NCBI GenBank assembly: GCA_045633625.1
Contig: JAZQYP010000016.1
Coordinates: 6,059 to 70,058 of the forward strand
DNA: 64,000 nt
Reading direction: 5' to 3'
DNA from: Eubacteriales bacterium
GTDB lineage: Bacteria; Bacillota; Clostridia; Oscillospirales; CAG-272
The notes beneath the pieces were generated by a model, which did not search any database, was not told where the DNA came from, and worked only from the letters and a program-made list of their open reading frames with translations. The translations under genes and the position numbers were made by a program. How positions within the stretch are numbered: the stretch's first letter is position 1; each line of letters opens with the position of its first letter. Of the stretch, positions 40,182-55,832 are shown piece by piece.

Positions 40182-40958
40182 ATGACAGCAAACGAAAGAC
40201 GCGAAAAAATATACGAGATACTCCAAAGAGACGGAGCCGTATCCACGGTAGACCTTTTTCAGACCTTTGACGTGTCGGGTGAGACTCTGCGCCGCGACCT
40301 TGTTGCTATGGAAGAGCAAGGCAAGCTTATCCGTGTTCACGGCGGTGCTATTATGCGCGGAGAGATAATGCCATACACTCCCCTTCAGGTGAGAAACACA
40401 GAACGCGTAAGAGAGAAAAAGGAGATCGCAAAAAAAATTGTCGAGTTTATTAGTGAAGGAGATATAATTTCACTCGATGCGGGAAGCACGTCATTATATA
40501 TTGCAGAGGCGATAAGAGATAATTTTGAAAAACTCACGGTTGTGACCTACTCTCTTGACGTTTTTAATATCCTGTGCGATAAAAACGGATTCGAAATGCT
40601 ACTCTGCGGCGGAAATTACGTTTCTGCATATCATATTTTTCTCGGTGATTTCACCGAAAAAATGCTCGATGCTCTCCACGTTCAGAAATCCTTTGTATTC
40701 CCCTCTGCCATATCTCTCGAAACCGGAATTTGCGAATATCATAGCGACACGTACACTCACCAGAGAAGAATGCTCTGTTTTGCCGATGAGACGTACGTGG
40801 TGGGCGATAGCTCGAAATTTGAGAAAAAAGCGCTTTATAAGGTGGACGATATGCGAAATGAGTATACCTACGTCACCGATAGCTCCCTCCCCGAGAGCCT
40901 GCGAAAAATATACGCGGCAAACGAAAAAAGAGTCATCGTAGCCGAGCCGATAGAATAA
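40182..40958 (+). CDS. DeoR/GlpR family transcriptional regulator
   Basis: The N-terminal DeoR HTH reads RREKIYEILQRDGAVSTVDLFQTFDVSGETLRRDLVAMEEQGKLIRVHGGA. A C-terminal sugar-phosphate-binding domain follows. Confidence 0.9.
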   Translation: MTANERREKIYEILQRDGAVSTVDLFQTFDVSGETLRRDLVAMEEQGKLIRVHGGAIMRGEIMPYTPLQVRNTERVREKKEIAKKIVEFISEGDIISLDAGSTSLYIAEAIRDNFEKLTVVTYSLDVFNILCDKNGFEMLLCGGNYVSAYHIFLGDFTEKMLDALHVQKSFVFPSAISLETGICEYHSDTYTHQRRMLCFADETYVVGDSSKFEKKALYKVDDMRNEYTYVTDSSLPESLRKIYAANEKRVIVAEPIE

Positions 40959-40989
40959 AAAAAGTGCCTGAAATTCAGGCACTTTTTTA
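40958..40989 (+). terminator. Rho-independent terminator
   Basis: The stem gtgcctga / tcaggcac is flanked by an A-run on the left and tttttt on the right. Confidence 0.75.
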
Positions 40990-40996
40990 TTTGCAT

Positions 40997-41220
40997 ACAA
41001 ATTGGGATTTATGGGGTATTGTGTAAGGGGATAAACGAGCGATTTCCGCAAACACTGTAGGGGCGCGCACTGCGCGTCCGCTCGTGCTTCTTTGGTATTC
41101 GTTGCGGACGGCCACATATTGCTTCGCAAAGGCTACGAACTTCGTTCGTGTGGCAGCCCCTACAATCAAAAATAATGTCTTACTCTCTACAAACACATCG
41201 ATAAATCAAAATTTGAAATC
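40997..41220 (+). repeat. Structured intergenic repeat, copy 1 (MITE/REP-like, 224 bp, expanded 3' sub-hairpin)
   Basis: It aligns by eye with 45047-45235 and 55575-55763. Shared blocks are AAATTGGGATTT, GGGATAAACGA.CGATTTC..CAAACACTGTAGGGGCG, GCGGACG, CCCCTACAAT and AAATCAAAATTTGAAA. It sits between the DeoR-family terminator and the pflA stop. Confidence 0.85.
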
Positions 41221-41223
41221 GGG

Positions 41224-41916
41224 TTATTTTATTTTCTCAATATCCTCGTCACGTGTCTCGTCGATGTGGGCGAGCGGGAAGTCTATGCCGAGGTTTTCGT
41301 ATTTGGGTAGGCAGAGCTTGCGGAATTTAAGCAGCTCGACCTTTTTTACACACGAATGAGCATCTCTGACGGCATAAAGGCGCTCAATGCTCTCTCGCGT
41401 GTCGTTTATTCCCTTCACTATTACCTGACGAAGCCACGTGTCGATTTTTCTCCTCTGCAATTCGTCAAGAAATGCGTCAACGCTTGCCTTTTTGCACCTT
41501 GTGTATCTTTCGTAATCTGCGTCGTTCGTCATCTTGTAGTCAAGCAGACAAAGGTCTGTGACGTCAAGCAGCTTTTCGACCGAGGCATTCCAAATACAGC
41601 CCGATGTGTCAAGTGCCGTGTGTATCCCCGCTTCCCCGCAAAGTGTGAAAAGCTCACGCACAAAGTCGGCTTGCATAAGGGGCTCGCCGCCCGAAACGGT
41701 GACACCGCCGTCTTTGCCGAAATACTCGCGGTAGCGGAGGATTTTATCAAAAATCTCGCGTGGCTCGTACTCATCACCGCCACTTACGTCCCACGTGTCG
41801 GGATTATGACAGTAGGCGCATCTGAGGGGGCAACCTTGCATAAATACCACAAAACGAACGCCGGGACCGTCAACGGTCCCAAGCGTTTGTATTGAATTTA
41901 TCCTTCCCTTCATCAA
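41224..41916 (-). CDS. pflA: Pyruvate formate-lyase activating enzyme (radical SAM)
   Basis: The radical-SAM cluster motif is [15 protein letters not shown]. The ORF is 230 aa and overlaps the pflB stop. Confidence 0.95.
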
Positions 41917-44144
41917 AGCACCTCGTGGAAGGTACGGCTGATGACCTCTTTTTGCTGTTCCTTCGAGAGCTTATGGAAGTTTACGGCATATCCCGAAACA
42001 CGGATGGTGAGGTTCGGGTACTTTGTGGGGTCCTCATATGCCTCGATAAGCTTTTCTTTGCTCAGCACGTTTACGTTTATGTGATGCGCATGCTTCTTGA
42101 AGTATCCGTCAAGTATATTCACAAGATTCACAACCTGTGTGTCCTCGTCAGCACCAAGTGCCGAGGGAACTATCGAAAAGGTATTCGAAATTCCGTCACG
42201 GCAGGCGTCATAAGGCATCTTTGCCACCGAATTGAGAGAGGCAAGCGCACCGCATCTCTCACGGTTGTGCATGGGATTAGCACCGGGGGCGAAGGGCTCG
42301 TGAGCGCCACGTCCGTCGGGTGTCGCACCCGTCTTTTTACCGTATACCACGTTCGACGTGATGGTAAGCGCCGAGAGGGTATGTATCGCATTCTTGTAAG
42401 TAGGAGTCTTGCGAAGCTCGGCTATTACGTCCTCAAGTATCTTCTTGCCTATATTATCAACTCTGTCGTCATCGTTTCCGTACGTGGGGAAATCTCCCGT
42501 AGTCTCAAAATCAACAATATAGCCGTTATCGTCACGAATGGGTCTGACGCTTGCATACTTCACCGCGCTCATAGAGTCGGTGATGACCGAAAGTCCCGCC
42601 ACACCAAACGCCATAAGATGCTCGACGTCGGTATCGTGAAGAGCCATTTGTATCTTCTCGTACGCATACTTATCGTGCATATAGTGGATGACGTTCATGG
42701 TGTTAACGTAAAGACGGCAGAGCCACTCAAGATAGATATGGAATCTTGCCGAAACTGCCTCATAGTCAAGCTTGTCAGCTCCGTACGGCTCTATCTGCGG
42801 ACCTATGTGCACGCCCGAAACGGTATCATATCCACCGTTGAGAGCGAGCAAAAAGAGCTTCGGCAGATTACAGCGCGCGCCGAAGAACTGCATCTGCTTG
42901 CCTATCTTCATAGCCGACACACAGCAGGCAATTCCGTAATCGTCGCCGTAATTTACACGCATAAGGTCATCGTTCTCGTACTGTATCGAATCGGTGTCAA
43001 TAGAGACCTTTGCGCAGAATTTCTTAAAGCCCTCAGGAAGATGCTCCGACCAGAGAATCGTGAGATTCGGCTCGGGAGCGGGTCCGAGGTTATAGAGCGT
43101 GTTGAGAATTCTGAAGGACGATTTTGTAACGAGCGTCTTGCCCGACACGCCCATACCGCCAACGCTCTCGGTTATCCACATGGGGTCTCCGCCGAAGAGC
43201 TCGTTATATTCGGGTGTGCGAAGGTGACGCGCCATACGGAGCTTCATAACGAAGTCGTCGATAAGCTCCTGCGCGCCCGACTCGTCGAGTCTGCCAGCCG
43301 CAATATCACGCTCAATGTAAATATCAAAGAAAGAAGCAACTCTACCGAGCGACATAGCCGCACCGTTCTGCTCCTTGATTGCCGCAAGGTAACCGAAATA
43401 CGTCCACTGGATAGCCTCACGCGCATTTCTTGCGGGCTTTGAGATGTCGTATCCGTAGATCTCAGCCATCTCCTTGGTCTTCTTAAGGAAGGCTATCTGC
43501 TGATAAAGCTCCTCAAGGAGTCTTATATTATCGGCGCTCATAAGATTCTCGCCCGTCTTTTTCTTGTCCTCTTCCTTCTTCTCGATAAGAAAATCTATTC
43601 CGTAGAGGGCAACGCGGCGGTAGTCACCGATTATTCTTCCGCGACCGTATGCGTCGGGAAGTCCTGTCATAACTCCGATATGACGAGCCTTTTTCATCTC
43701 GTCGGTATAAACTCTGAAAACTCCGTCGTTATGCGTAGTGCGATACTTGAACTCGTTCTCGATCTCCTCGGAGAGTGCATATCCGTATGCTCCGCACGCC
43801 GCGCGCGCCATACGGATGCCGCCAAAGGGGTGTATACCGCGGCGAAGGGGTGCATCGGTCTGAAGACCCACGATAAGCTCGTTTTCTTTGTCAAGATAGC
43901 CCGCCGCATAGTTTGTAAGAGAGGAAGCTGTGACGGTGTCAATATCAAGCAGACCGCCATTCTCTCTCTCCTTGGCAAAAAGCTCCTCAAGCTTTGCCAT
44001 AAGCGCGCTTGTGCGCTCGGTGGGGCCTGCAAGGAAGTCCGCTTCTCCCTCGTATGCTGTGTAGTTATCCTGAATGAACTGTCTTACGTTCACCTCGTTC
44101 TGCCACACGTCCCCAAGAAAACCATTCCACATTTCAAATTTCAT
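41913..44144 (-). CDS. pflB: Formate C-acetyltransferase (pyruvate formate-lyase)
   Basis: The glycyl-radical motif RVSGYAVNF lies near the C-terminus and the active-site region contains GIACCVS. The length is about 743 aa. I prefer the ATG at 44144 (MKFEMWNGF), which follows GGAGG. Confidence 0.97.
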
Positions 44145-44277
44145 AGAATTATCCTCCATTTTCCAGTCCGCCCAGACGGTCGACGTGTGACTTATTTACT
44201 ACACGGTGTTAATTCACCTGTCCGTCAGTAGTTTATAATTTATTATACTATATTCCTACAAAAAAGTCAATCGGGGA

Positions 44278-44312
44278 CAAAAAAATATCCCGACGGATTT
44301 TCCCGTCGGGAT
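44278..44312 (-). terminator. Rho-independent terminator of 44318..44941
   Basis: The stem atcccgacgg / ccgtcgggat has a 6-nt loop and is followed on the minus strand by a T-run (+ strand A-run at 44278-44285). Confidence 0.7.
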
Positions 44313-44317
44313 AAGCA

Positions 44318-44941
44318 TTATTTTTCGTCCTTGTTAAGACTTATTACCTTCTTTTGCCAAGACTTTTTGTGGCACTCGGGGCATTCCATATATCTTGTTC
44401 TGCCCATGTGCATTGCCATAAAAACGCTGCTGTATTTCGGCACGTATCTATGGCCACACTCGGCGCACTCATAATAGCCTGCAGTCTGCTCTATTTTTAT
44501 CAGAAACGGCATTGCTACGAGCAGGGGAACAAGTCCCACAAGAATGAGCACGATCCTCAGCCAATCCGCTATTTTAGCATAGGCTGCAACAGCACATAAT
44601 GCGAGCATTACACCTATGCACACAAAGCCCGTTACAAGCTCTACGGCAAGAAGTCTTTTGTCTGCCTGCTCCTTTGCTTTTACCATTTCAAGTAAATTTT
44701 TTTCAAGCTCCTTGTTGTAATTTTCCATTTCAATTTTCTCCCCACATAATAATTCGTTTACGCTGATAGAAAGCAGGTCACAAAGCTCGAGCATTATAGA
44801 CGAGTCGGGTAATGCCCTGCCCGTTTCCCATTTAGAAATCGCTCTGTCGGTGATACCTAACTTCTCGGCAAGAGTAGCTTGTGTAAAGCCCTTTGCCTTT
44901 CTTCTCTCGGCAATAAATCTGCCGATCTTTATCTGATCCAT
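44318..44941 (-). CDS. Membrane-tethered XRE-family regulator with C-terminal zinc ribbon
   Basis: The HTH reads IAERRKAKGFTQATLAEKLGITDRAISKWETGRALP. A coiled segment and two TM helices follow. The C-terminus is CAECGHRYVP...CPECHKKSW. Confidence 0.8.
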   Translation of the reverse strand: MDQIKIGRFIAERRKAKGFTQATLAEKLGITDRAISKWETGRALPDSSIMLELCDLLSISVNELLCGEKIEMENYNKELEKNLLEMVKAKEQADKRLLAVELVTGFVCIGVMLALCAVAAYAKIADWLRIVLILVGLVPLLVAMPFLIKIEQTAGYYECAECGHRYVPKYSSVFMAMHMGRTRYMECPECHKKSWQKKVISLNKDEK

Positions 44942-45046
44942 ATTTTCTGCCTCCTTTCGTTATCAGTATATCTTGCGGAGTCAAAAAACACAACATACCG
45001 GTGGTTGAGTTGGGGATTTTCAACCGATTTTAGAGTGTTTTACAAG

Positions 45047-45235
45047 GTAAATTGGGATTTGGCGGGTTATTGTGTAGGAGGATAAACGAACGATTTCTAC
45101 AAACACTGTAGGGGCGGCCATTGGCCGTCCGTTCGGAATTTTTCGTCGTTTATTGCGGACGCGCAGTGCGCGCCCCTACAATCATAAATGATGTTTTGCT
45201 CTCTATAAACAGACCGACAAATCAAAATTTGAAAG
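45047..45235 (+). repeat. Structured intergenic repeat, copy 2 (189 bp, sub-hairpins swapped)
   Basis: It has the same flanks and orientation as copies 1 and 3. The core reads GTAGGGGCG-GCCATTGGCC-GTCCG...GCGGACG-CGCAGTGCGCG-CCCCTAC. Confidence 0.85.
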
Positions 45236-45253
45236 CATAAAATAAAATATATT

Positions 45254-46342
45254 TTAACCGAGCTCGTTGCCCTTATGCCACGTGGGGAAAAGCTCGTGCC
45301 ATACGTCCATATGCGCCTCACAATCGAGATAGTGACGGAACATCTCCATATCGTCCCCGTCAAGCGAGCCCTTGAAGGCGGCACGGCGGTACTGATCATA
45401 GTATTCCTCGCAGAAGGTGCGCCATTCCTTTTTCCACTCACCGCTCTCAAGCTTCGCGTTTCTCTCGCAAAGCTCGGATATAAGTCTTGCGAAAAGCTCG
45501 TTCTTTGCGATCTCTATTCCCTCGTTGTCGTCGCGTGATCTTACGGGCACGTAGCTCACCTTGAGGCTATCCTTATTGACATCAACAAGTGCCACAAGTC
45601 CCGTGTTCCACATCTCGCCCTCCTTAAATCCGACGAAATGGAAGTTGCCCTGACCGTAGAGGATATGTCCACCCTCAAAGTCCTCATAGCAGCCGATACA
45701 ATGGCTATGCTGACAAAATACCGCCGATGCGCCAACGCGAACCATCTCGTGGCAAGCCTTCATAAGTCGGGGTGAAGGATAACGGCAAAGCTCCTTACCG
45801 CCGTGGTAGATGACGATAACGTGATCGGCATTCTTCTTTGCCTGACGGATATCCTGCATAGTCTCAAACTCGTCAAAGGGACGGGCACCCATCGTGTCCT
45901 CGGTAGCATAGGTATATTCATGCTCGCAGACGTTGACGATAGCGACCGTCACGTCGCCTGCGGTTATGTAGTGATTTTTGCGCGAATCCTCATAATTCTC
46001 ACCAAAGCCCGTGTATCTCATAGAGCATTCGTCAAGGGCTGCAAGCGTGTCCTCCATACCCTCTCGTCCGAGGTCGAGAATATGGTTATTCGAGAGCATA
46101 CAGTCGGTGACTCCCGCTGCCTTGAGGGTTTTTACGGTGTTTGTCGGCGCATTAAGATTAGGTCCGAATTTCTTTATCTTATATCCTCTGTCGGTGACAG
46201 CGCACTCAAGATTTACTATAACGGCGTCTTTGTCCGAGAAGAGCGATATGACGTCGGAAAACGCCACCGCGGCATCTATTTTATCAAATGCCTCCCACGC
46301 TTTTGGGGTTATGGAAAGGTCTCCGCAAACCACAAGCTTCAT
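45254..46342 (-). CDS. CapA family protein (PGA_cap-type metallophosphatase fold)
   Basis: It contains MKLVVCGDLS, NLECAVT, LSNNHILD, VIYHGGKE and CQHSHCIGCYE. The ATG at 46342 follows GGAGG. I see no signal peptide. Confidence 0.8.
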   Translation of the reverse strand: MKLVVCGDLSITPKAWEAFDKIDAAVAFSDVISLFSDKDAVIVNLECAVTDRGYKIKKFGPNLNAPTNTVKTLKAAGVTDCMLSNNHILDLGREGMEDTLAALDECSMRYTGFGENYEDSRKNHYITAGDVTVAIVNVCEHEYTYATEDTMGARPFDEFETMQDIRQAKKNADHVIVIYHGGKELCRYPSPRLMKACHEMVRVGASAVFCQHSHCIGCYEDFEGGHILYGQGNFHFVGFKEGEMWNTGLVALVDVNKDSLKVSYVPVRSRDDNEGIEIAKNELFARLISELCERNAKLESGEWKKEWRTFCEEYYDQYRRAAFKGSLDGDDMEMFRHYLDCEAHMDVWHELFPTWHKGNELG

Positions 46343-46491
46343 AAAGGGTAATCCTCCAAAAAAGGTTATTAGCAAAATTATACAACAACGCCGCCTCCGT
46401 GTCAACCAAATCGCCGAAAAAGCTCAAAATATATTGACAAAATCTCAAATTATGGTATCCTTAAATCAGTAAAATAATTGGAGGTAACCCT

Positions 46492-48447
46492 ATGCTTAAA
46501 ATAGCAAAAATAACGTCCTCGCCCATTGTCGATTTTGCGGCGGAGGAATTAAAGAAATATCTTCGTATGATGATGCCCCGCGCGGGTGAGATAAAGATAG
46601 AATATGCGCCCGATGCGACCGATGGATTTCGTCTTGGTCTTATGTCCGATTTCTCACTTGACACAATCGAGGCAGACGATCTTAAGCTTGACGATATCAT
46701 TCATATTGACACCGACGATAAGGGCGGAATTATTGCAGGCTCGAACGCGCGAAGCGTTCTTCTTGCGGTATATAAGTACCTGACCATAAACGGCTGCCGT
46801 TGGCTCTTCCCCGGTATTGACGGCGAGTACATCCCCGTAAAGGACGTAGATCCCACCAATTATCACAAGATGGCAGACAACCGTTACCGCGGTTGGTGCA
46901 ACGAGGGCGCGGAAAGCCAGACCTGTATGATGGAGACTATAGACTTTGCTCCGAAGGTTGGTATGAACGTCTATATGCTTGAGTTCTTCTGCCCGTTTGA
47001 TTACTATGATTATTACTACAACCACCGATTCAATCAGGCAAACCGCGAGCCCGAAAGAGTCACGCGCGAGACTGTCACACAGTGGAAGCGTCTTTGCGAA
47101 GTTGAGATGGCAAAAAGAGGTCTGCAATTCCACGATATAGGTCACGCGTGGGCATCCCTGCCCTTTGGACTTGACCCCGACAAATCCTATGCCGAGGGCG
47201 AGACCGACGAGGCGCTTGAAAATGCCCTTCCCTATATGGCGCTTGTAAACGGCAAGCGCGAGCTTGTTAGCGGCACGCCTATGTACACCAATTTCTGCAT
47301 GTCAAATCCCGAGGCGCGCGCCAAGGTGGTAGATAAGGTTGCCGAATACTGTGAGATGAACGGACACGTGGATTACCTTCACGTGTGGCTGGGCGACTCC
47401 CTCAACCACTCCTGCGAGTGCGAGGACTGTGCTAAAAAAACTCACTCCGATTGGTACGTCACTCTCTTAAATGAAATAGATGCGGAGCTTACAAAGAGAC
47501 AGCTAAGCAACCGTCTCGTTTTTGGGGCGTGCTATGACTCCTTATTCCCGCCCGAGACCGAAACGCTAAACAACCCCTCTCGCTTCTCGATATTGCTCGC
47601 GCCCATATACCGCTCCTACACCGAGTCGGTGTCGCCTAAGACTCCCCCGCTTGAGCTTAAAAGGTTCGTAAGAAACAAGAACGTCTCGCCCTCAAACCCC
47701 GCAGAGCCCGTGGCATACGCTGAGCTTTGGAGAGAAAAAAGCGGCGCGAACGTCCTTCTCTACGAATATCATTTCTGGGTAAATCAGGTCTACGAGGTAA
47801 CGGGAATCCGCTTTGCCGAGATAATTCACAATGACATCAAGGGCTACCGCGCGCACGGCTTTGGTGGCTCTATCGAGGACGGCTCGCAGAGAAGCTTCTT
47901 CCCTAACGGCTTCCCGATGTACACCTATGCGCAGACTCTCTTTGACACGTCTCTTGATTTTGGTGCCATCAAGGAGGACTATTTCAGCCACGCTTACGGC
48001 GAGGACTATGGCGAGGTCATAGCCTTCTTTGAGAAGATAGCCGAGTGTGTTGACCACAAGTTCCTTGCAGGCGAGAGGAGCGCAAATGAGAAGGTGGGAC
48101 AGTACTACAATCCCGCAATGGCTCCCCTTCTCCGCCGCGTACCCGAGGTGGTAGAGGAATTCAGACCCTTCCTTGAGGCGCACAAGACTATGCCCAAGCG
48201 AGTGCAGACGGTGGCAATGAGACTGCTCATAAAATATCTTGAATATATCACGGGCATCGCCCACTTTATGACCCTGCGCGCGCTTGGTGCATCGGCAGAG
48301 GCAAAGCAGGCGGCAAACGAATTTATCGACAGCTTCGGGCGCCACGAGATAGAGATAGAAAGATATTTCGATATGTGCAACTTCGCAAAGTCGCTCCTGT
48401 GGAGAATAATGAAGAAGGACGAGGACCCCGTAAACCTTGGAATATAA
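46492..48447 (+). CDS. DUF4838-like protein (glycoside-hydrolase-like), paralog A
   Basis: This is a 651-aa ORF. The N-terminal block is VDFAAEELKKYLRMM. It also has NFCMSNPEA and the Cys block HSCECEDCAKK, which fit my recollection of DUF4838 blocks. No signal peptide is present. Confidence 0.65.
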   Translation: MLKIAKITSSPIVDFAAEELKKYLRMMMPRAGEIKIEYAPDATDGFRLGLMSDFSLDTIEADDLKLDDIIHIDTDDKGGIIAGSNARSVLLAVYKYLTINGCRWLFPGIDGEYIPVKDVDPTNYHKMADNRYRGWCNEGAESQTCMMETIDFAPKVGMNVYMLEFFCPFDYYDYYYNHRFNQANREPERVTRETVTQWKRLCEVEMAKRGLQFHDIGHAWASLPFGLDPDKSYAEGETDEALENALPYMALVNGKRELVSGTPMYTNFCMSNPEARAKVVDKVAEYCEMNGHVDYLHVWLGDSLNHSCECEDCAKKTHSDWYVTLLNEIDAELTKRQLSNRLVFGACYDSLFPPETETLNNPSRFSILLAPIYRSYTESVSPKTPPLELKRFVRNKNVSPSNPAEPVAYAELWREKSGANVLLYEYHFWVNQVYEVTGIRFAEIIHNDIKGYRAHGFGGSIEDGSQRSFFPNGFPMYTYAQTLFDTSLDFGAIKEDYFSHAYGEDYGEVIAFFEKIAECVDHKFLAGERSANEKVGQYYNPAMAPLLRRVPEVVEEFRPFLEAHKTMPKRVQTVAMRLLIKYLEYITGIAHFMTLRALGASAEAKQAANEFIDSFGRHEIEIERYFDMCNFAKSLLWRIMKKDEDPVNLGI

Positions 48448-48539
48448 GCTTGTTTTGTCCACCTTTTTTGTCAAAAAATGGGTTTACACTTCACGTGCAG
48501 TATGATATAATAGAAAAAAACGTACTAAAGGAGTAAAGT

Positions 48540-50489
48540 ATGTATAAGATTTATAAAATAACCTCTCACCCAACGGTTGATTTCGCGGCAGAGGAGCTCA
48601 AAAAATATCTTCGTATGATGATGACCGAGTGCGGAGAAATTGAGATTTCTTACGCACCCGATGCCACTGACGGATTCCGCCTTGGTCTTATGTCCGACTT
48701 CTCACTTGACACAAGCGAGGCAAAGGATCTTTCTCTTGACGATATAATCCATATCGACACCGATACCGAGGGTGGTATAATTGCAGGAAGCAACGTTCGA
48801 AGCATTCTTCTTGCCGTTTACAAATACCTCACACTCAACGGCTGTCACTGGCTCTTCCCCGGAATTGACGGAGAGCTTATTCCCGCAAAGGACATAGAGC
48901 CCACAAAATTCCACAAGATGGCAGACAACCGCTACCGTGGTTGGTGCAACGAGGGCGCGGAGTTCCAGCACTCTATGCTTGAGGCGATAGATTATGCCCC
49001 CAAGATAGGTCTTAACATCTTTATGCTTGAGTTCTTCAATCCGCAGATCTACTATAGCTGGTACTATAATCACCCTCACAACTCTAACCGCGAGGCAGAG
49101 CCCGTAAGCTCGACCACCACCCTTCAGTGGAAGCGTCAGTGCGAGGCGGAGATAGCAAAGAGAAGCCTTCAGCTCCACGACATCGGTCACGGTTGGACAA
49201 CGCGCCCCTTCGGCGGACGCGACGAGGACGTTTTCAATCTCGGCAAAGCTGAGATCCCCGAGGAGAACAAGAAATACCTCGCTCTTCTCAAGGGCAAGAG
49301 AGACCTCTATATTGGACGCCCCAATCACACCAACTTCTGCTTCTCAAACGAAGAAGGAAGAAGGATCGTCGTTAATTTCGCCGCTGACTACGCAGAAAAA
49401 TTCAGACACGTCGACTACCTGCACTACACCCTTGCCGATAGCTTTAACAACCACTGTGAGTGCGAGGAGTGCAAGAAAAAAACTCCGTCCGACTGGTACG
49501 TAATTATGCTCAACGAGCTTGACGAGGAGCTTAAGCAGAGAGGACTTGATACAAGAGTTGTTTATGCCGCGTACGTTAACACCACGTGGCCGCCCGAGGT
49601 CGAGAGAATAAACAACCCCGACAGATTTACCATTCTTCTTGGCGCTATCACCCGTGATTACACAAAGACAGTATCGAGAACTCTTCCCGACATAGAGCTT
49701 ACAAAGCACGTTCATAATGCCATCACGCTCCCCAAAACTCTTGACGAGTACGTTCTTTACACCAAGGAGTGGCAGAACAGATGCAAGACCGCCGCGCTTA
49801 CCTATGAGTACCACTTCTACGTAAATCAGTATTTCGATCCCGGTATGTTCAGCTATTCGAAGATACTTTACGATGACGTAATAGGCTACAACAAGCACGG
49901 ATTTGTCGGTATGATAGAGGATGGCACACAGCGCTGCTTCTTCCCGAACGGACTCAATCTCTTCGTTTACGCATCGACCCTCTTTGATATGAGTCGTGAC
50001 TTCGACGCGCTCGTTGACGAATATTTCTCGGCGGCATACGGCGAGGACTATGAGAAGGTAAAGGAGTATTTCACACGCCTTGGCAATATATTCGAGCATG
50101 CATACATCGCAGGAAATAAATATGCAGACCGAGGCAACGGAAGATACTATAGCCCCGAGCACGCAGAAAAGATGCGCGGAATTTATGCACTCAACGAGGA
50201 GTTCCGCCCCTTCTTTGAGTCACACAAGAATATGCCCCTGCGCGCGCAGACGGTGGCATTCAAGCTCCTTCGCAAGTACGCGGAGCTTTGGGAGAAGATG
50301 GCAAGACCTCTTATCCTCAAGGCATACGGCGTAGACGACGAGGCAAAGGAGGCATACCTTGCCGTTCTTGATGATTTTGGAAAATACGAGACCGAGCTCG
50401 AATTGTGGTACGATCAGCACATGTTCGGCATGGCATTCGACCGCAGATTTACAATGAAGAGCGATATTATGAATATCGGCGCACAGTAA
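48540..50489 (+). CDS. DUF4838-like protein, paralog B
   Basis: This 649-aa ORF is collinear with paralog A and shares MSDFSLDT, NRYRGWCNEGAE, NFCFSNEEG and NHCECEECKKK. It has its own promoter-like TTTACA-17-TATAAT in the 92-nt spacer. Confidence 0.65.
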   Translation: MYKIYKITSHPTVDFAAEELKKYLRMMMTECGEIEISYAPDATDGFRLGLMSDFSLDTSEAKDLSLDDIIHIDTDTEGGIIAGSNVRSILLAVYKYLTLNGCHWLFPGIDGELIPAKDIEPTKFHKMADNRYRGWCNEGAEFQHSMLEAIDYAPKIGLNIFMLEFFNPQIYYSWYYNHPHNSNREAEPVSSTTTLQWKRQCEAEIAKRSLQLHDIGHGWTTRPFGGRDEDVFNLGKAEIPEENKKYLALLKGKRDLYIGRPNHTNFCFSNEEGRRIVVNFAADYAEKFRHVDYLHYTLADSFNNHCECEECKKKTPSDWYVIMLNELDEELKQRGLDTRVVYAAYVNTTWPPEVERINNPDRFTILLGAITRDYTKTVSRTLPDIELTKHVHNAITLPKTLDEYVLYTKEWQNRCKTAALTYEYHFYVNQYFDPGMFSYSKILYDDVIGYNKHGFVGMIEDGTQRCFFPNGLNLFVYASTLFDMSRDFDALVDEYFSAAYGEDYEKVKEYFTRLGNIFEHAYIAGNKYADRGNGRYYSPEHAEKMRGIYALNEEFRPFFESHKNMPLRAQTVAFKLLRKYAELWEKMARPLILKAYGVDDEAKEAYLAVLDDFGKYETELELWYDQHMFGMAFDRRFTMKSDIMNIGAQ

Positions 50490-50497
50490 TAATAAAA

Positions 50498-50530
50498 CAA
50501 AAAAGCGTCAGGACATTGTCCTGACGCTTT
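50498..50530. terminator. Bidirectional terminator between paralog B and rubrerythrin
   Basis: The stem gcgtcaggac / gtcctgacgc is flanked by aaaaaa on the left and tttt on the right. Confidence 0.75.
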
Positions 50531-50540
50531 TAATTTACCA

Positions 50541-51080
50541 TTAATAGTTCTCTTTTCTTACCTCAAAGTAAGCCTTGGGGTGCTTGCACACGGGGCAAAC
50601 CTCGGGAGCGGCGGTAGCGATGACTACGTGACCGCAGTTGCGGCACTCCCACATAACAACGCCTGCCTTCTCGAATACCTGAAGGGTCTCGACGTTGCGA
50701 AGAAGCGCGCGGTATCTCTCCTCGTGCATCTTCTCGATTGCGGCTACTCCGCGGAACTGCTCAGCGAGATCGTGGAAGCCTTCCTCATCAGCCTCTTTTG
50801 CGAACTTGTCATACATATCGGTCCACTCGTAGTTCTCGCCCTCAGCCGCCGAGAGAAGATTCTCTGCAGTGTCGCCGATGCCGCCGAGCGCCTTGAACCA
50901 AAGCTTTGCGTGCTCCTTCTCGTTATCTGCGGTCGCAAGGAAAAGTGCCGCTATCTGCTCGTAGCCCGCCTTCTTTGCAGCGGAAGCGAAATATGTGTAT
51001 TTGTTTCTTGCCTGTGACTCTCCCGCGAAAGCATCGCGAAGATTCTGCTCGGTCTTTGTGCCTGCATACTTGTTAGCCAT
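50541..51080 (-). CDS. rbr: Rubrerythrin
   Basis: The ferritin-like di-iron domain contains [22 protein letters not shown] and EKEHAKLW. The C-terminal rubredoxin motif is CRNCGH...CPVCKHP. Confidence 0.95.
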
Positions 51081-51198
51081 AGTAAAAATCCTCCGTAAAT
51101 TTATTTATATGATGATTATAGCATTTCCAAAAAATGTTGTCAATATATAATTTTTAGTATTTTTTCATTTTTGAGCTACAAAATATCATAAAATAGTC

Positions 51199-51227
51199 TT
51201 GACAATATGGCAAAGATGATGTATAAT
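51199..51227 (+). promoter_or_regulatory. Consensus sigma-A promoter for tRNA-Ser
   Basis: TTGACA (51199-51204), a 17-nt spacer and TATAAT (51222-51227) are present, about 47 nt upstream of the tRNA. Confidence 0.6.
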
Positions 51228-51274
51228 AGCAAAAGCGAATAAAAATAATACCTTTGGTAGTATCGCGAGTATAT

Positions 51275-51366
51275 GGAGATGTACTCAAGAGGCCGAAGAG
51301 GCGCCCCTGCTAAGGGTGTAGGTCGGGATAACCGGCGCGAGAGTTCAAATCTCTCCATCTCCGCCA
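51275..51366 (+). tRNA. tRNA-Ser (anticodon GCT), with encoded CCA
   Basis: I folded it by hand. The acceptor is GGAGATG/CATCTCC. The anticodon stem is CGCCC/GGGTG with loop CTGCTAA. It has a long variable arm, a T-arm GAGAG-TTCAAAT-CTCTC, discriminator G and CCA. Confidence 0.9.
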
Positions 51367-51367
51367 G

Positions 51368-51402
51368 AAAAGAGCAACTGCATTTTATGCAGTTGCTCTT
51401 TT
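51368..51402 (+). terminator. Strong rho-independent terminator after tRNA-Ser
   Basis: The perfect 13-bp stem agagcaactgcat / atgcagttgctct is followed by ttttctcttt. Confidence 0.85.
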
Positions 51403-51407
51403 CTCTT

Positions 51408-51441
51408 TGGCGGGATGGAGAGATTTGGTCCCCTCTCCGCC
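51408..51441 (-). pseudogene. Inverted partial copy of the tRNA-Ser 3' half, including CCA
   Basis: The rc of 51408-51441 is GGCGGAGAGGGGACCAAATCTCTCCATCCCGCCA. The genuine tRNA 3' part is GGCGCGAGAGTTCAAATCTCTCCATCTCCGCCA. Confidence 0.7.
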
Positions 51442-51574
51442 GATTTGCAAAGCAAACGGCGGGGGTAGGCGAGGTGAAAACGATTGAGTATCGTTTTCAA
51501 CCGCCGAAACCGCCCCAAGCAAGGAGCAGGCAGAGCCGAGCGAGCGCAGGCGATAGAATGCGACTATGCGACGG

Positions 51575-51598
51575 TGGCGGGATCAAATCTCTCCATCT
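51575..51598 (+). repeat. Direct partial copy of the tRNA-Ser 3' end (att-like)
   Basis: TCAAATCTCTCCATCT (51583-51598) is identical to 16 nt of the tRNA T-arm and acceptor (51344-51359). The preceding TGGCGGGAT also occurs at 51408-51416. Confidence 0.7.
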
Positions 51599-51724
51599 GT
51601 GCTTTTTCTTAAAAATGATGTCAAATTGATGTCAGAAATGTCGTCAAAAATATCGTCAAAAATAGAGACGCCCACAAATGCATATAAAAAAGCAGCCGCC
51701 ATGCGACTGCTTTTCTTTTTATTA

Positions 51725-53125
51725 TTAACCCTTAAGCGACTCATCCGCGACGAGCTGACGTACCCAAGTGCCGCGGCGGAGCAATAGGAAGCCGAATCCC
51801 GTCTTTATTATCTCGCTTGCCTGACATATTACAAAGAGCCAATGGATGCCCATAGGCGTAAAATATGCAAGCGCCACGCTTATCGGAAGCACGATGGTCC
51901 ACATATAAACGCTATCAAAAAGAAGCGTAACAAACACACGTCCGCCCGAGCGGAGAGTGAAATATGCCGAATATGCATAGGACGCGAAGGGCATCACCGC
52001 CGCCGAAACTATCATACAGAAGGTAGCAAGCTCCTTTGCCGTCTTTGTGGTGTTGTAAAGCTCGGGGAAAAGTCCCGAAAAGGCTATCATAACGCCCGCC
52101 ATCGCCACCGAGGCGAAAATGCAAAGAGCCATTAGCTTTCTGTCGGTGTCCTTTGCCCGATCAAGCTCACCCGCTCCAAGCTCGTTGCCCACGATTATCG
52201 CGATCGACGAGCCTATCGCCATATAAACTACCTGAAAAAGATTTACCACCGTGGTGCTTATGTTAAGTCCCGCCACCACGTCAAGTCCGCGCGTTGAATA
52301 GCACTGATTGCGGATAACCATAGCTATCGCCCAGAATATCTCGTTTGCCATAAGGGGCATTCCCTTCACTACCACCGCGCCGAGAAGCTTTCTTGGAACC
52401 CTGAACGAACGAAGCGCGCCCACAAGATAGCTGTATTTTTTCTTGTGTGTGTATCCCCAAACAACGATTACCAAAAGCTCGCAAAATCTTGAGATGACCG
52501 TTGCAATTGCCGCACCCGCAACACCAAGCGCGGGAGCGCCGCAAAGTCCGAAGATAAGCACGAGGTTAAGCACGAAATTAACACCAACCGCCAAAAGACT
52601 TGACACCATAGGAACAACCGACTGTCCCGTCTCTCGCATCGTTGAGGCATATACCTGCGCTATACCATATGGCAAAAGCCCCACAAGCATTATAAGAAGG
52701 TATCTTTTGCCCTCGGCAAGCGTGAGCGCGAGATCTCCCTCGGATTCTGTCGCGTGAAGGAAGCTTGAAATGAGTCCGTCACCAAAAATAAGAAATCCGA
52801 CGATGCCCACAAAGCCGACCAATGCCGTAATTATAAGCTTTAATCTGAGCGTATACCTTATGCCCTCTTCATCGCCCTTACCCTTATACTGCGCGGTGAA
52901 TATTCCCGCCGCGGAGATGGCGCCGAAAACGGCAAGATTAAAGATGAATATAAACTGATTGACGATCGAGACGCCCGACATCGACTCGGTGCCGAGTCTG
53001 CCTACCATCACGTTGTCAAGCAGACCAACGAGATTGGTGATGCCGTTTTGTATCATTATGGGGAGCGCTATGGCAAGGGCATGCTTGTAGAATGCCCTGT
53101 CGCCAATATATTTCTTAAAATTCAT
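51725..53125 (-). CDS. MATE family efflux transporter
   Basis: The protein is about 466 aa with 12 predicted hydrophobic segments. The N-terminal block is LAIALPIMIQNGITNLVGLLDNVMVGRLG. The ATG at 53125 follows GGAGA. Confidence 0.85.
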   Translation of the reverse strand: MNFKKYIGDRAFYKHALAIALPIMIQNGITNLVGLLDNVMVGRLGTESMSGVSIVNQFIFIFNLAVFGAISAAGIFTAQYKGKGDEEGIRYTLRLKLIITALVGFVGIVGFLIFGDGLISSFLHATESEGDLALTLAEGKRYLLIMLVGLLPYGIAQVYASTMRETGQSVVPMVSSLLAVGVNFVLNLVLIFGLCGAPALGVAGAAIATVISRFCELLVIVVWGYTHKKKYSYLVGALRSFRVPRKLLGAVVVKGMPLMANEIFWAIAMVIRNQCYSTRGLDVVAGLNISTTVVNLFQVVYMAIGSSIAIIVGNELGAGELDRAKDTDRKLMALCIFASVAMAGVMIAFSGLFPELYNTTKTAKELATFCMIVSAAVMPFASYAYSAYFTLRSGGRVFVTLLFDSVYMWTIVLPISVALAYFTPMGIHWLFVICQASEIIKTGFGFLLLRRGTWVRQLVADESLKG

Positions 53126-53272
53126 ATAAATTCTCCATGACAAAATTCCCCATTATTATATCATCTATCAAGGAGAAAATCAAGTCAAAAAGCGTTCAGC
53201 CTTGCAAAATTTTTACTCTCTTTATACCGCAAACAAAATATTTATACTGTGGCGCAAATTAAAAAAAAGCTC

Positions 53273-53304
53273 TTGACAAACAATACTATGTATGGTATAG
53301 TATT
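53273..53304 (+). promoter_or_regulatory. Promoter with overlapping palindromic operator upstream of the PadR gene
   Basis: TTGACA (53273-53278), a 17-nt spacer and TATAGT (53296-53301) are present. The inverted repeat AATACTAT (53282-53289) / ATAGTATT (53297-53304) has a 7-nt spacer. Confidence 0.55.
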
Positions 53305-53323
53305 ATACAACAGGAGGTATATT

Positions 53324-53653
53324 ATGGACGCACAAACGAAAAGAGGACTCCTTGACGTCTGCGCGCTTGCCGCCATAAAGGACGGCGAGTCGTACGGATA
53401 CAAGATAATTAAAGATATGTCACCATACGTTGAGATATCCGAATCAACGCTCTACCCGATACTTCGCCGCCTTGAGAGCGCGGGGCTTATCGCCGTCAGA
53501 ACGGCAGAACATAGCGGAAGACTTCGCAAATACTACAGTATAACCGACAAGGGTGTATTGAGGATTGAGGACTTCAAAAACGAATGGAACGAGATGATCT
53601 CAATTTATAATTTCATCACACGAAAGGGGGAAAAAGCAAATGAAGAAGCATGA
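53324..53653 (+). CDS. PadR family transcriptional regulator
   Basis: It contains GESYGYKIIKDMSPYVEISESTLYPILRRLESAGLI and RKYYSITDKG. The ATG at 53324 follows AGGAGG. Confidence 0.9.
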   Translation: MDAQTKRGLLDVCALAAIKDGESYGYKIIKDMSPYVEISESTLYPILRRLESAGLIAVRTAEHSGRLRKYYSITDKGVLRIEDFKNEWNEMISIYNFITRKGEKANEEA

Positions 53654-54239
53654 GTTTTTAGGTGAGCTGCGTGCAAGACTCCGCGGGCTTACCGACAAAG
53701 ATATAGCTCTCTCCGAAGACTATTACGGAGAGATGATAGACGACAGAATTGAGGACGGAATGAGCGAGGAGGACGCTATAGCGGCGCTTGGCGAGCTTGA
53801 CGATATCGTCAAGGAAATTCTCCGTGAGATCCCCCTTCACAGAATCGTGCGCGAGAGGGCAAAGAACCGCAGACACTTGCGTGCGTGGGAGATAGTTCTT
53901 ATCTCGGCAGGCTCTCCCCTTTGGATACCCATACTTGTCGCATTCGCGGCAGTGATACTCGCGGTGTATATTGCAACGTGGGCAGTGGTCATCAGCTGCT
54001 ATGCCGTAAGCTTTGCCCTTGCGGCAAGCTCGGTAGGATGTCTGCTTGGCGGATGTGCAGCGTTCGTTATTTTCGGTGTGGGAGACGGACTATTTCTTCT
54101 CGGCGCGGCGTTTATTGTCGCCTCGCTTGCAATACTTGCATTTCTCGGCTGTAACGGATTTGCCAAGGGTGTGGTATATCTTGGCAAAAAGATAATTCTC
54201 GGCGTCAAAAGATGCATTGTCGGAAAGGGGGATAAATAA
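53640..54239 (+). CDS. DUF1700-like membrane protein
   Basis: The N-terminus MKKHEFLGELRARLRGLTDKDIALSEDYYGEMIDD is followed by C-terminal TM helices. It overlaps the PadR gene by 14 nt. Confidence 0.8.
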   Translation: MKKHEFLGELRARLRGLTDKDIALSEDYYGEMIDDRIEDGMSEEDAIAALGELDDIVKEILREIPLHRIVRERAKNRRHLRAWEIVLISAGSPLWIPILVAFAAVILAVYIATWAVVISCYAVSFALAASSVGCLLGGCAAFVIFGVGDGLFLLGAAFIVASLAILAFLGCNGFAKGVVYLGKKIILGVKRCIVGKGDK

Positions 54240-55528
54240 TGAAATCAAGCAAAGCAAAAAAACGTATGATCGCCCTTATCGTTGCGGCAGGTCTCTTTGT
54301 CGCAGGCATCGCACTTTCCGCTATAGGAGTTGTATTTATGGGTAATAATTCTCACTTCATTTCAAAAAACAATTACAAGTCGGTCACGGCTGACGTTACG
54401 GAGGACTTTAAGTCTATAAGCGTACTCGCCACCACCTGTGACGTCATTTTTGAGGCTTCCCCCGACAACAACACTTTGATATCGGCACACGTTCCCGAAA
54501 AAAGCGACGTCGAAAGCTTTGTCGAGGACGGCACACTTCATATTCGCGTAAAGGACAACCGCAAATGGTATGATTTTATACGTATATCAATAGGCACCGA
54601 GTCGCCAAGTGTTGTAGTGTATTTGCCGAAGGGCGAGTATGAGACGCTTTACGCTCACGTCACCACGGGAGACTTCAGCATAGGTGAGGAGCATTCCTTC
54701 TCTTCCCTCTCCTTTGAGGCAAGCACGGGAGACGCCGTGATATTATCACCCGTAGGAGAGTCACTTTACGCCAAGGTGACCACGGGAGACGTAAGAGTGG
54801 GCAATACCTCACCCGCACTTATGGAGCTCAGAGCCACAACGGGCGATATAAAGATAGAAAACGTGCAAAATTCAGGCAAGATAACGGCAAAGACGGGATC
54901 GGGAAAGGTTTCTTTCTCTACGGTACACGCAAACGAGATAGATATTGAGACGACCACGGGAGATATTGGCCTTGAGGACGTTATCGCAGCTTCCTCGGCT
55001 CATATCAAGGCAACGTCGGGCGACGTAGAATTTGAGGCATTTGACTCGGCAGAAATTTATATTAAGGTAACCACGGGCGACGTCGAAGGTGAGCTGCTTT
55101 CGAGCAAGAAGTTTATCACCGACACGACCACGGGCGACGTAAGAGTTCCCTATAGCACCGAGGGCGGTGTGTGTGATATAAAGACCACCACGGGCGATAT
55201 TGAAATTTACGTTGTCGACCGCTCATCACGCATTTACGTTTGGGAAAAGGAAGGCGCGGGCGGCGCATTTACCATAAGTCTTTTTGAGGACGGCACCTTC
55301 CAATATTACGAGGGAATGTTCTCAAGCTATATTGGAATGGGCACGTGGGAAAAGGACGGAGAGGTTATCACTCTCACCGAGGGCGACATCGGCTACGGCT
55401 TTGTATTTAAGTTCAGAATGTCACACGGCGACCTGCTGTTTATCAAAGAGGAATCGGACAAATTCCTTTACACCGACGTCGCCGACGGGGACAGATTCCT
55501 CGGCAGAATGATGAAGGAAGATAAATAA
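54239..55528 (+). CDS. DUF4097-like beta-strand-repeat protein with extra C-terminal domain
   Basis: An N-terminal TM helix is followed by repeated T(T/S)GD(I/V) strands: TTGDFSI, STGDAVI, TTGDVRV, TTGDIKI, TTGDIGL, TSGDVEF, TTGDVEG, TTGDVRV and TTGDIEI. About 100 additional C-terminal residues follow. Confidence 0.85.
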   Translation: MKSSKAKKRMIALIVAAGLFVAGIALSAIGVVFMGNNSHFISKNNYKSVTADVTEDFKSISVLATTCDVIFEASPDNNTLISAHVPEKSDVESFVEDGTLHIRVKDNRKWYDFIRISIGTESPSVVVYLPKGEYETLYAHVTTGDFSIGEEHSFSSLSFEASTGDAVILSPVGESLYAKVTTGDVRVGNTSPALMELRATTGDIKIENVQNSGKITAKTGSGKVSFSTVHANEIDIETTTGDIGLEDVIAASSAHIKATSGDVEFEAFDSAEIYIKVTTGDVEGELLSSKKFITDTTTGDVRVPYSTEGGVCDIKTTTGDIEIYVVDRSSRIYVWEKEGAGGAFTISLFEDGTFQYYEGMFSSYIGMGTWEKDGEVITLTEGDIGYGFVFKFRMSHGDLLFIKEESDKFLYTDVADGDRFLGRMMKEDK

Positions 55529-55530
55529 TA

Positions 55531-55558
55531 AAAGGGCGGTCATACCGCCCTTTATTTG
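55531..55558 (+). terminator. Rho-independent terminator
   Basis: The stem aaagggcggt / accgcccttt is followed by atttg. Confidence 0.65.
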
Positions 55559-55574
55559 TCGCAATTTTAAGAGA

Positions 55575-55763
55575 TAAATTGGGATTTGTGGGGGTGTTGT
55601 GTAGAGGGATAAACGAACGATTTCTACAAACACTGTAGGGGCGCGCACTGCGCGTCCGCTCGTGCTTCTTCGGCGTTCGTTGCGGACGGCCAATGGCCGC
55701 CCCTACGATTAAAAATAATGTTCTACTCTCTACATAACATCCCAATAAATCAAAATTTGAAAT
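55575..55763 (+). repeat. Structured intergenic repeat, copy 3 (189 bp)
   Basis: It is closest to copy 1, about 90% identical over shared positions by eye. It lies between two convergent terminators. Confidence 0.85.
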
Positions 55764-55784
55764 AGCGGGTGCCTTGTGTCAAGA

Positions 55785-55825
55785 CAAAAAGCGCTTACGG
55801 CAATGCCGTAAGCGCTTGATTTTCT
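55785..55825. terminator. Terminator of aspS (usable in both directions)
   Basis: The 13-bp stem is agcgcttacggca / tgccgtaagcgct. It is flanked by caaaaa on the left and tgatttt on the right. Confidence 0.75.
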
Positions 55826-55832
55826 ATTACTA

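Follow-up and report, generated by a model that had tools for sequence, protein, structure and literature searches.

The subject of this analysis is a palindromic repeat of ~190 nt in a bacterium of the order Oscillospirales (CAG-272), three copies of which lie in one 64,000-nt stretch of DNA, hereafter the window (G000:C16:6059-70058, where G000 denotes the genome, of 2.05 Mb on 77 contigs with 47% GC). The three copies can be aligned over ~190 nt, and the middle one, copy 2, has its centre arranged in another way than the two others. Copy 2 occupies 45049-45233 (+), with AAATTGGGATTT and AAATCAAAATTT+GAA as the ends of its outer part, here called the chassis. Its core at 45108-45179 (+) is a head-to-head doublet of repetitive extragenic palindromes (REPs), of which the left half is a beta REP of the GGCC type, lying on the top strand, and the right half an alpha REP of the GCGC type, lying on the bottom strand. 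Along the forward strand the core consists of the 5' arm of an outer stem P1, GTAGGGGC (45108-45115); the beta mini-hairpin GGCCATTGGCC on the 5' arm (45116-45126); the 5' arm of an inner stem P3, GTCCG (45127-45131); a T-rich spacer TTCGGAATTTTTCGTCGTTTATTG (45132-45155), which reads forward between GTCCG and CGGAC; the 3' arm of P3, CGGAC (45156-45160); the alpha mini-hairpin GCGCAGTGCGC of the 3' arm, with alpha being read on the other strand (45161-45171); and the 3' arm of P1, GCCCCTAC (45172-45179). Copy 3 (55576-55761, core 55635-55706, +) has the order GTAGGGGC-GCGCACTGCGC-GTCCG-CTCGTGCTTCTTCGGCGTTCGTTG-CGGAC-GGCCAATGGCC-GCCCCTAC, that is, with alpha as GCGCACTGCGC on the 5' arm and the counterpart of beta as GGCCAATGGCC on the 3' arm. 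Copy 1 (40999-41217, core 41057-41163, +) follows the layout of copy 3, including GCGCACTGCGC on the 5' arm, but has GGCCAATGGCC replaced by an expanded beta hairpin of 46 nt at 41108-41153. An earlier note on this DNA had described the mini-hairpins of copy 2 as standing on the opposite arms from those of copies 1 and 3, between outer flanks of unchanged orientation, and the 3' arm of copy 1 as carrying an expanded hairpin; our reading of 45108-45179 and of the other copies bears out all of this. The copies have ordinary genes on either side: a DeoR regulator and a radical-SAM protein for copy 1, a PGA_cap protein and an XRE regulator for copy 2, a DUF4097 protein and an aspartyl-tRNA-synthetase-like protein for copy 3. 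The arrangement of copy 2 is unlikely to be an artefact of assembly, because this copy lies in the middle of a 72-kb contig and because the assembly word, which we infer to be ~141 nt from the terminal motif found at position 126-127 of contig ends that bear repeats, is longer than the 72-nt core.

The two mini-hairpins belong to two different REPs, alpha reading GTAGGGGC-GCGCACTGCGC-GTCCG and beta GTAGGGGC-GGCCATTGGCC-GTCCG, with a 24-nt spacer separating them. Both have a 5' GT[AG]G that immediately adjoins the base of an imperfect palindrome rich in GC, as in REPs generally. Alpha is resolved as GTAG-GGGCGCGC-ACT-GCGCGTCC and beta as GTAG-GGGCGGCC-ATT-GGCCGTCC, each with an 8-bp GC-rich stem, one G.T pair and a 3-nt loop. 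In the 2.05 Mb there are 41 occurrences of GTAGGGGCGCGCACTGCGCGTCCG and 30 of GTAGGGGCGGCCATTGGCCGTCCG, each in the reading from its own GTAG. Overall, the genome has 46 complete inverted doublets, which are extragenic and hairpin-forming like the REP doublets forming hairpins (REPINs) of other bacteria. The ~190-nt repeat is a non-autonomous palindromic miniature element, the centre of which is a doublet of two different GTAG-tagged REPs, similar to a REPIN or a bacterial interspersed mosaic element (BIME).

Based on the inner flanks, which are unlike each other (...GATAAACGA.CGATTTCTACAAACACT at the left and AATCAAAAATAATGT... at the right) and so give every core an unambiguous orientation, we then classify all 46 complete cores of the genome. 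They fall into three discrete classes. Class A, with GCGC at the left, a spacer that is T-rich on the top strand and GGCC at the right, has 32 copies, among them copies 1 (long form) and 3 (short form). Class B, with GGCC at the left, a top-strand spacer again T-rich and GCGC at the right, has 10 copies including copy 2. Class C, with GGCC at the left, a top-strand spacer that is A-rich and GCGC at the right, has four copies, three short and one long, and is the exact turn-over of the whole core, spacer included. The fourth combination, GCGC at the left with an A-rich spacer and GGCC at the right, occurs in none of the 46 cores. Given the copy numbers of the two REPs (41 and 30) and the swapped arrangement in 10 of 46 cores, the pattern of copy 2 is not a matter of chance. 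The proposal that whole modules were rearranged, as opposed to a drift by point mutations, is supported. The earlier expectation of two isomers was right in that there is no continuum of variants and wrong in their number, which is three. The simple alternative of an inverted whole core, loop included, does not apply to copy 2, but does describe the four class C copies.

Within class A, the counts as tabulated give 14 copies with the long hairpin and eight with a variant spacer TTCATTGG.... Over all 46 cores, the long beta hairpin is found in 14, namely 13 of class A and one of class C. In the long form, ~35 nt (ACACGAACGAAGTTCGTAGCCTTTGCGAAGCAATATGT in the reading of the beta strand) replace the 3-nt loop of the beta hairpin. 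Identical spacers occur in long and short forms, so that gain, loss or exchange of the insert must have happened more than once.

The hairpins of copy 2 were also said to be reverse-complemented. This is correct for copy 2 itself, although it rests on a single loop base (ACT/AGT, AAT/ATT) that has seven exceptions among the cores: C14:2891, C43:4722, C1:8101, C52:17477 and the three short class C copies. When each REP is followed from its GTAG, the loop triplet is as a rule ACT in alpha and ATT in beta, in classes A and B alike. The central loop base is thus weak evidence when taken alone, and the robust feature is the change of sides of the two hairpins. No relation was found between the arrangement or orientation of the elements and the direction of replication, as judged by local GC skew: the top strand has positive skew for 13 of 28 class A, three of nine class B and three of four class C copies, which shows no trend, the measure being rough on short contigs. 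In addition, a reading frame open through the core +/-240 nt is present in none of 45 cores.

The spacers were compared position by position and tested against 2000 shuffles. Between copies 2 and 3 the forward comparison gives 15/23 ungapped, or 16/24 with the flanking base, which is equalled by 0 of 2000 shuffles, and the inverted one gives 5/23 (4/24), at the level of chance. The earlier note had counted 16 of 23 forward and 5 of 23 inverted. Across the classes, B and A spacers agree at 16/24, again with 0 of 2000 shuffles as good. The spacer of the long class C copy, when reverse-complemented, matches the A spacer at 21/24 and the B spacer at 19/24 (0 of 2000 shuffles as good in either case). 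Class C is therefore intermediate between A and B not only in structure but also in sequence, because both values exceed the 16/24 between A and B. Spacers are specific to the classes: six B copies share an identical spacer, the remaining B copies have B-like ones, and an A-type spacer between swapped hairpins is found in none of the 10 class B copies. The closing pair of P3, an asymmetric T...G read directly from the letters, moves together with the spacer, as is expected if the inner breakpoints fall in GTCCG/CGGAC. Every segment that differs in orientation is bounded by a stem, the outer one being GTAGGGGC(G)/(C)GCCCCTAC and the inner one GTCCG/CGGAC, which is the situation of minute inversions.

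These comparisons lead us to the reading that we favour, with slightly better than even confidence: the isomers are old lineages that descend from two rare nested inversions in a REPIN-like doublet, and are not an active flip/flop. An inversion across the outer stem (P1, 8-9 bp) would turn over the whole core, from A to C or the reverse, and a second one, nested in the first and with its ends in the inner stem (P3, 5-6 bp), would turn back the spacer alone, from C to B or the reverse, so that copy 2 would come to have swapped, reverse-complemented hairpins around a spacer that reads forward. The process would probably be strand switching during replication, or else intramolecular recombination within a hairpin or cruciform; either inversion would be rare, and either product would then have spread as a lineage through copying of the element. 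Quasipalindrome template-switch mutations and the minute hairpin-loop inversions of chloroplast DNA are known processes of the same type. At least one event inside the core is required, because the orientation of the spacer relative to the alpha/beta pair differs between A and B, and for the same reason a move of the whole doublet cannot make A into B. What the sequences show directly is the anatomy of the element, its three discrete classes with their own spacers, the intermediate spacer of class C and the link of the REPs to RAYT genes (described below); the order and the mechanism of the inversions, like the enzyme that copies the element, we infer.

The distribution of the doublet in other genomes bears on its age. 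In another genome (G029), which belongs to a different family of the same order, the alpha/beta doublet is present in ~60 copies within a chassis of its own, and all 30 copies that match the flank pattern have alpha beside the flank AAT[CT]AGGATTT, which means a single arrangement. On the whole the doublet is patchy, being found in five of 301 genomes sampled across the order and expanded only in G000 and G029. The class-specific spacers and the single arrangement in G029 therefore argue for old lineages and against an active switch, and altogether four points are counted in favour of old lineages: these two, the patchy distribution and the missing relation to GC skew. The spacer of the G029 family aligns with no spacer of G000 in either orientation; the AATCA after CCCCTAC is common to both genomes, but is too short to be relied on.

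The likeness of copy 2 to the flip/flop isomers of hairpinned DNA termini, which the earlier note had pointed out, does not hold: the elements are internal extragenic repeats with diverged class-specific spacers, and the analogy fails because two arrangements in active exchange should have their spacer in common, and none do. True flip/flop would mean that the loci interconvert, through a nuclease of the REP-associated tyrosine transposase (RAYT) type or through hairpin processing at replication, and that the assembly shows one state for each locus. We consider this improbable. It is true that the boundaries of the modules are inverted repeats, that every module is seen in either orientation somewhere, that the genome encodes an HUH enzyme family which cuts and rejoins REP single strands, and that the flanks do not track the class of the core. 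But the spacers of the classes are 5-8 of 24 positions apart, so that the arrangements must have long been separate; G029 has one arrangement in 30/30 copies; and orientation shows no link to GC skew. Moreover, as the GTAG sites are on opposite strands, cutting and rejoining of a single strand should be unable to invert the core in one step. For the proposed processing by cruciforms, hairpins or an HUH nuclease, the tie to HUH enzymes is upheld, by the GTAG-tagged REPs and by two RAYT-like genes of the genome; a switch driven by the RAYT is not favoured.

Several points weigh against the nested inversions. No near-identical strain was found: the neighbouring XRE protein gave no record, a metagenome scan with a flank-plus-P1 pattern gave 0 matches, and within the genus the closest genomes, in which the gene next to the repeat is only ~77% identical, are without the insertion. 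The series A-C-B may run in either direction, given that the G029 spacer aligns with none in G000. The flanks do not co-segregate with the class of the core (within minus between identity 0.016, permutation p 0.09), and several B copies have a class A copy as their nearest flank neighbour. The explanation is either a reshuffling of cores and flanks between copies or too weak a signal in the 110 nt of flank. The simple picture of three clonal lineages is therefore weakened, and core class as a clean clonal lineage together with its flanks is rejected, flank identity not being partitioned by class. The beta loop of class C is AAT, although ATT would result if class A were simply inverted; one more small change, at the least, must therefore have taken place. 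Finally, 42 of 46 cores have a spacer that is T-rich on the top strand, but with three lineages only this may reflect history rather than a rule.

The failure of the flanks to follow the cores also suits recombination between copies in opposite orientation, with crossovers in the palindromic stems that would leave chimeric cores and a larger chromosomal inversion. Many copies do exist both ways, 23 elements lying on the forward and 26 on the reverse strand of their contigs, and the flanks are mosaic. Such crossovers, however, predict chimeras of whole cores or half elements, not nested exact breakpoints in stems of 8 bp and 5 bp, and synteny offers no support, the nearest genomes being only ~77% identical in neighbouring genes; we judge this explanation to be very unlikely.

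Folded as a single strand, the core gives a four-way junction of P1, the two mini-hairpins and P3 with its spacer (z -2.2 to -4.0). In copy 2 this junction is the minimum-free-energy fold of the core, at -17.6 kcal/mol, and the whole element as single-stranded DNA (ssDNA) forms a long imperfect hairpin of -35.8 kcal/mol (z -4.4). An alternative fold, read directly, has each REP on its own, as GTAG followed by the stem of 8 bp that includes one G.T pair. Under RNA parameters, 19 of 22 full elements have a more stable fold for the top strand than for the bottom one, by a mean of -5.8 kcal/mol and in both arrangements, and the spacer is T-rich on the top strand of the chassis in 42 of 46 copies. 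Taken together, fold and spacer give a hint of strand asymmetry, the copies not being independent. A structured RNA or single strand that is specific for one strand, with interchangeable side hairpins and a T-rich (U-rich) spacer held on the top strand by selection, agrees with both counts. Against it, the copies are related by descent, no Rfam family matches the element at gathering or at E up to 1 in a scan of 40900-55900, and the elements lie in convergent as well as co-directional spacers with no consistent relation to the neighbouring genes, and we put little faith in it. A literature search with sequence strings such as GTAGGGGCG and VGAIHESP gave only unrelated primer matches. A related conjecture would combine strand specificity with the nested inversions: chassis and spacer would form the strand-specific module (an ssDNA substrate or an RNA), the REPs would be interchangeable cassettes, and only copies with the spacer re-inverted (class B) would have stayed fit to multiply, class C being decaying intermediates. 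This we hold to be unlikely as well.

The REPs can be linked to genes of the same genome. Two genes for RAYT-like Y1/HUH proteins are present, one at C69:10479-10997 (-) with an in-frame pair of beta/beta REPs and one at C27:12164-12658 (+) with an in-frame pair of REPs of a second dispersed core family (family 2; the cores described above are family 1). The two proteins are 45% identical to each other, and both have the motifs HIH/HVH and YIxENP. Their best family is NCBIfam NF047646, the REP-associated tyrosine transposase (REP_Tyr_transpos), with E 9e-19 and 3e-16; the scores of 67.7 and 59.6 bits are below the curated equivalog cut-off of 80. Pfam Y1_Tnp is matched with 21.1 bits (below the 23-bit cut-off) and 30 bits, and the nearest solved structure is E. 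coli TnpA_REP 4ER8, with which the HUH and Y motifs align. In the C69 gene the arms GTAGGGGCGGCCATTGGCCGTCCG ... CGGACGGCCAATGGCCGCCCCTAC, both of them the beta REP, encode VGAAIGRP ... GRPMAAPT, and in the C27 gene the arms GTAGGGGAGGGGTCTGCCCTCCCG ... CGGGAGGGCAGACCCCTCCCCTAC are the REP of family 2; the two pairs occupy the same positions of the proteins. Thus Y1 HUH genes physically carry the dispersed REP sequences of their own genome, as is expected of cognate RAYTs, and the beta REP is cognate to the only family-1 RAYT of G000. No gene with the alpha REP was found in G000, which is 95% complete. We also examined RAYT-like genes of five other genomes of the order (loci L031-L043), and at least 11 of the 13 have a matching in-frame REP pair. 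There the REP arms differ from gene to gene, stay complementary and match dispersed doublets of the same genome. The pair has two fixed positions, one on either side of helix alpha-A/B and the HUH strand, and its arms co-vary between paralogues. Among the side observations, the RAYT-like gene of G029 has alpha/alpha arms and an internal stop, and locus L043 is without the 5' arm. Judging from these sequence relations, alpha and beta REPs are predicted substrates of RAYT-type Y1/HUH enzymes.

The design of these genes is not new. Quentin et al. 2018 (PMC6006769) describe a TnpA_REP subclass 2.4 (RAYT group 4) with in-frame intragenic REPs and 'double foot' REPs (5' GT[AG]G and 3' C[TC]AC), and a comparison of our genes with that text finds the same in-frame REPs and the same long or double-foot REPs. 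In-frame intragenic REPs are accordingly context here rather than a new result. What differs is that the pair here is at two fixed sites around helix alpha-A/B and the HUH strand with co-varying arms; the comparison is one of gene design. Two candidate origins were rejected. An IS200/IS605 element with TnpB as the parent is set aside for the lack of any PF07282 (TnpB) match in the genome, and the view of the dispersed cores as shrunken copies of the gene segment that is bracketed by hairpins fails since no similarity is seen between the spacer of family 2 and the inner part of the C27 gene (z 0.8 in forward and 0.03 in inverted orientation).

It is the chassis that gives the core an orientation, and the chassis is shared more widely than the core. 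Its ends, AAATTGGGATTTATCG... and ...CGAYAAATCAAAATTT+GAA, form inverted repeats, and AAATTGGGATTTATCG against AAATTTTGATTTATCG agrees at 14/16, as in terminal inverted repeats. The right-end motif AAATCAAAATTTGAA occurs 88 times genome-wide and closes at least five repeat families, including family 2, which has 133-nt cores with the REP GTAGGGGAGGGGTCTGCCCTCCCG in the same chassis as family 1. At 44 full elements no target-site duplication was found; the junctions are asymmetric, since the left end is preferably preceded by A-Y and the right end runs into a conserved GAA. No parent element or transposase gene was found in this fragmented metagenome-assembled genome (MAG), where the longer repeat families are 220-260 nt and non-coding. 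These non-coding elements of the shared-end group break the assembly and cause many of its contig breaks. As observed separately, at least five non-coding repeat families of 180-260 nt have the common ends AAATTGGGATTTATCG... / ...CGAYAAATCAAAATTTGAA, with sister elements for example at C7:28190-28415 and C13:21385-21606 and at many contig starts (1-141). Six elements, which belong to at least three families (on C12, C16 at ~71160 and outside the window, C29, C64, C69 and C74), carry a 29-nt insert TACCCCAAGGGGTAGATACCTTCGGTATG, composed of two tiny hairpins, and all have it at the identical point AAAT|CAAAATTTGAA within the terminal motif; it is either an end altered by conversion or a site-specific insertion of very small size. 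A 9-nt context ACAAACACT directly 5' of GTAGGGGCG recurs beside clearly different REP stems in several further Clostridia MAGs (loci L049-L069; rabbit, human or animal faecal, Oscillospiraceae, Avispirillum), the search pattern itself having selected for that context, and fecal_MAG_389 additionally has the end TTCAAATTTTGATTTATCGG; from this recurrence ACAAACACT may be part of a conserved cleavage context.

The sharing of one chassis raises the question of whether single REPs are replaced without any inversion, alpha and beta being exchanged by the RAYT or by gene conversion within a stable chassis and spacer. Two unrelated REP families in the same chassis (family 1, and family 2 with GTAGGGGAGGGGTCTGCCCTCCCG), own-GTAG loops that are constant in A and B (ACT for alpha, ATT for beta), the mosaic of cores and flanks, and the 29-nt mini-insert at one point of the terminal motif in several families, which indicates exchange or targeted insertion at the level of modules, all speak for such replacement. 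It would nevertheless require two coordinated replacements, and it leaves class C unexplained, where the spacer is inverted together with the REPs and is intermediate between A and B. The movement of single REPs is also unobserved for REPINs: Bertels and Rainey 2011 (PMC3116915) found excisions of doublets and none of singlets. We therefore regard the replacement of single REPs as unlikely, and retain the nested inversions as the favoured origin.

Among known systems, REPINs and BIMEs are the closest. They share the GTAG at the foot of a GC-rich imperfect palindrome, the inverted pair with GTAG outside and a short spacer, the tens of extragenic copies together with a RAYT-like Y1/HUH gene in the genome, and the alternative folds, a long hairpin or junction against a 'clover' of separate REP hairpins. 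E. coli BIMEs, with their Y and Z units, are like the present element a doublet of two different REP types. REP doublets are reportedly accompanied by RAYT / TnpA_REP, as Nunvar 2010 and Ton-Hoang 2012 are said to have described. Here the doublet differs in that it sits in a longer chassis with ends common to other repeat families, and we know of no earlier description of three arrangement isomers relative to such a chassis. Facing REPs with GTAG outside are the 'HH dimers' of Di Nocera 2013 (PMC3733652), which makes no mention of Firmicutes or Clostridia, and a facing REP pair is the REPIN of Bertels and Rainey 2011 (PMC3116915).

The inverted terminal repeat of adeno-associated virus (AAV, a parvovirus) has the same cross- or T-shaped hairpin with two small internal palindromes between outer arms, and its nuclease is of the HUH family; class C against class A is likewise an exact turn-over between outer arms. 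In AAV, however, flip and flop are two equimolar and fully reverse-complementary forms that result from hairpin transfer at the termini of a linear genome, whereas our copies are internal to chromosomal contigs, with no linear end involved, and the classes are unequal in number and diverged. Only class C is a reverse complement in this sense, the spacer of copy 2 being forward (16/24 against 4/24). Chloroplast minute inversions and quasipalindrome template switches have in common with our cores an inverted segment that is bounded by a stem, with no other change and no need of a recombinase; the difference is that here two events are nested and the products were then amplified as lineages of a mobile repeat. 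The Correia elements of Neisseria, with alpha/beta ends, and the miniature inverted-repeat transposable elements of bacteria are also short, palindromic, extragenic and of high copy number, with combinations of end subtypes. Our element differs from them by the lack of a target-site duplication, by its asymmetric junctions and in that the search of its genome found no parent transposase gene.

Besides the repeat, the window has a few other features. At 44163-44242 (-), upstream of a 748-aa open reading frame at 41913-44159 (-), lies a ZMP/ZTP riboswitch, which matches Rfam RF01750 with 40.6 bits, slightly over the gathering threshold. A tRNA-like match of 89 nt (RF00005, 49.8 bits) at 51275-51363 (+) is probably a tRNA with a long arm. 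Long low-complexity coding repeats at 5897-6226 and 31642-32123 are common to two distant genes, and consist of TCGGTCTC-type units with 6- and 12-nt periods and of GCC/ACC-rich runs.

Overall, the element is a REPIN- or BIME-like doublet of a known kind and not a new type of system, and its one unusual feature is the well-resolved series of isomers. To our knowledge, REPs, REPINs and their RAYTs have been studied in depth in Proteobacteria, and descriptions from Firmicutes are few. The present case means that a REP doublet can be built of two different REPs, that it can ride in a longer palindromic chassis common to other miniature repeats, and that, on the favoured reading, inversions across the stems of the element can rearrange it into products that persist as separate lineages. 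For the classification of repeats there is a caution in this, as a subfamily may differ by an internal inversion rather than by substitutions. If the conjecture of a strand-specific module were true, the isomers would be a record of selection, in a REPIN-like element, for a property that depends on the strand, and the beta REP beside the conserved CACT|GTAG on the top strand may change which copies the RAYT mobilises. In any case, the series A, C and B offers natural material for the question of which strand and which REP context a RAYT needs.

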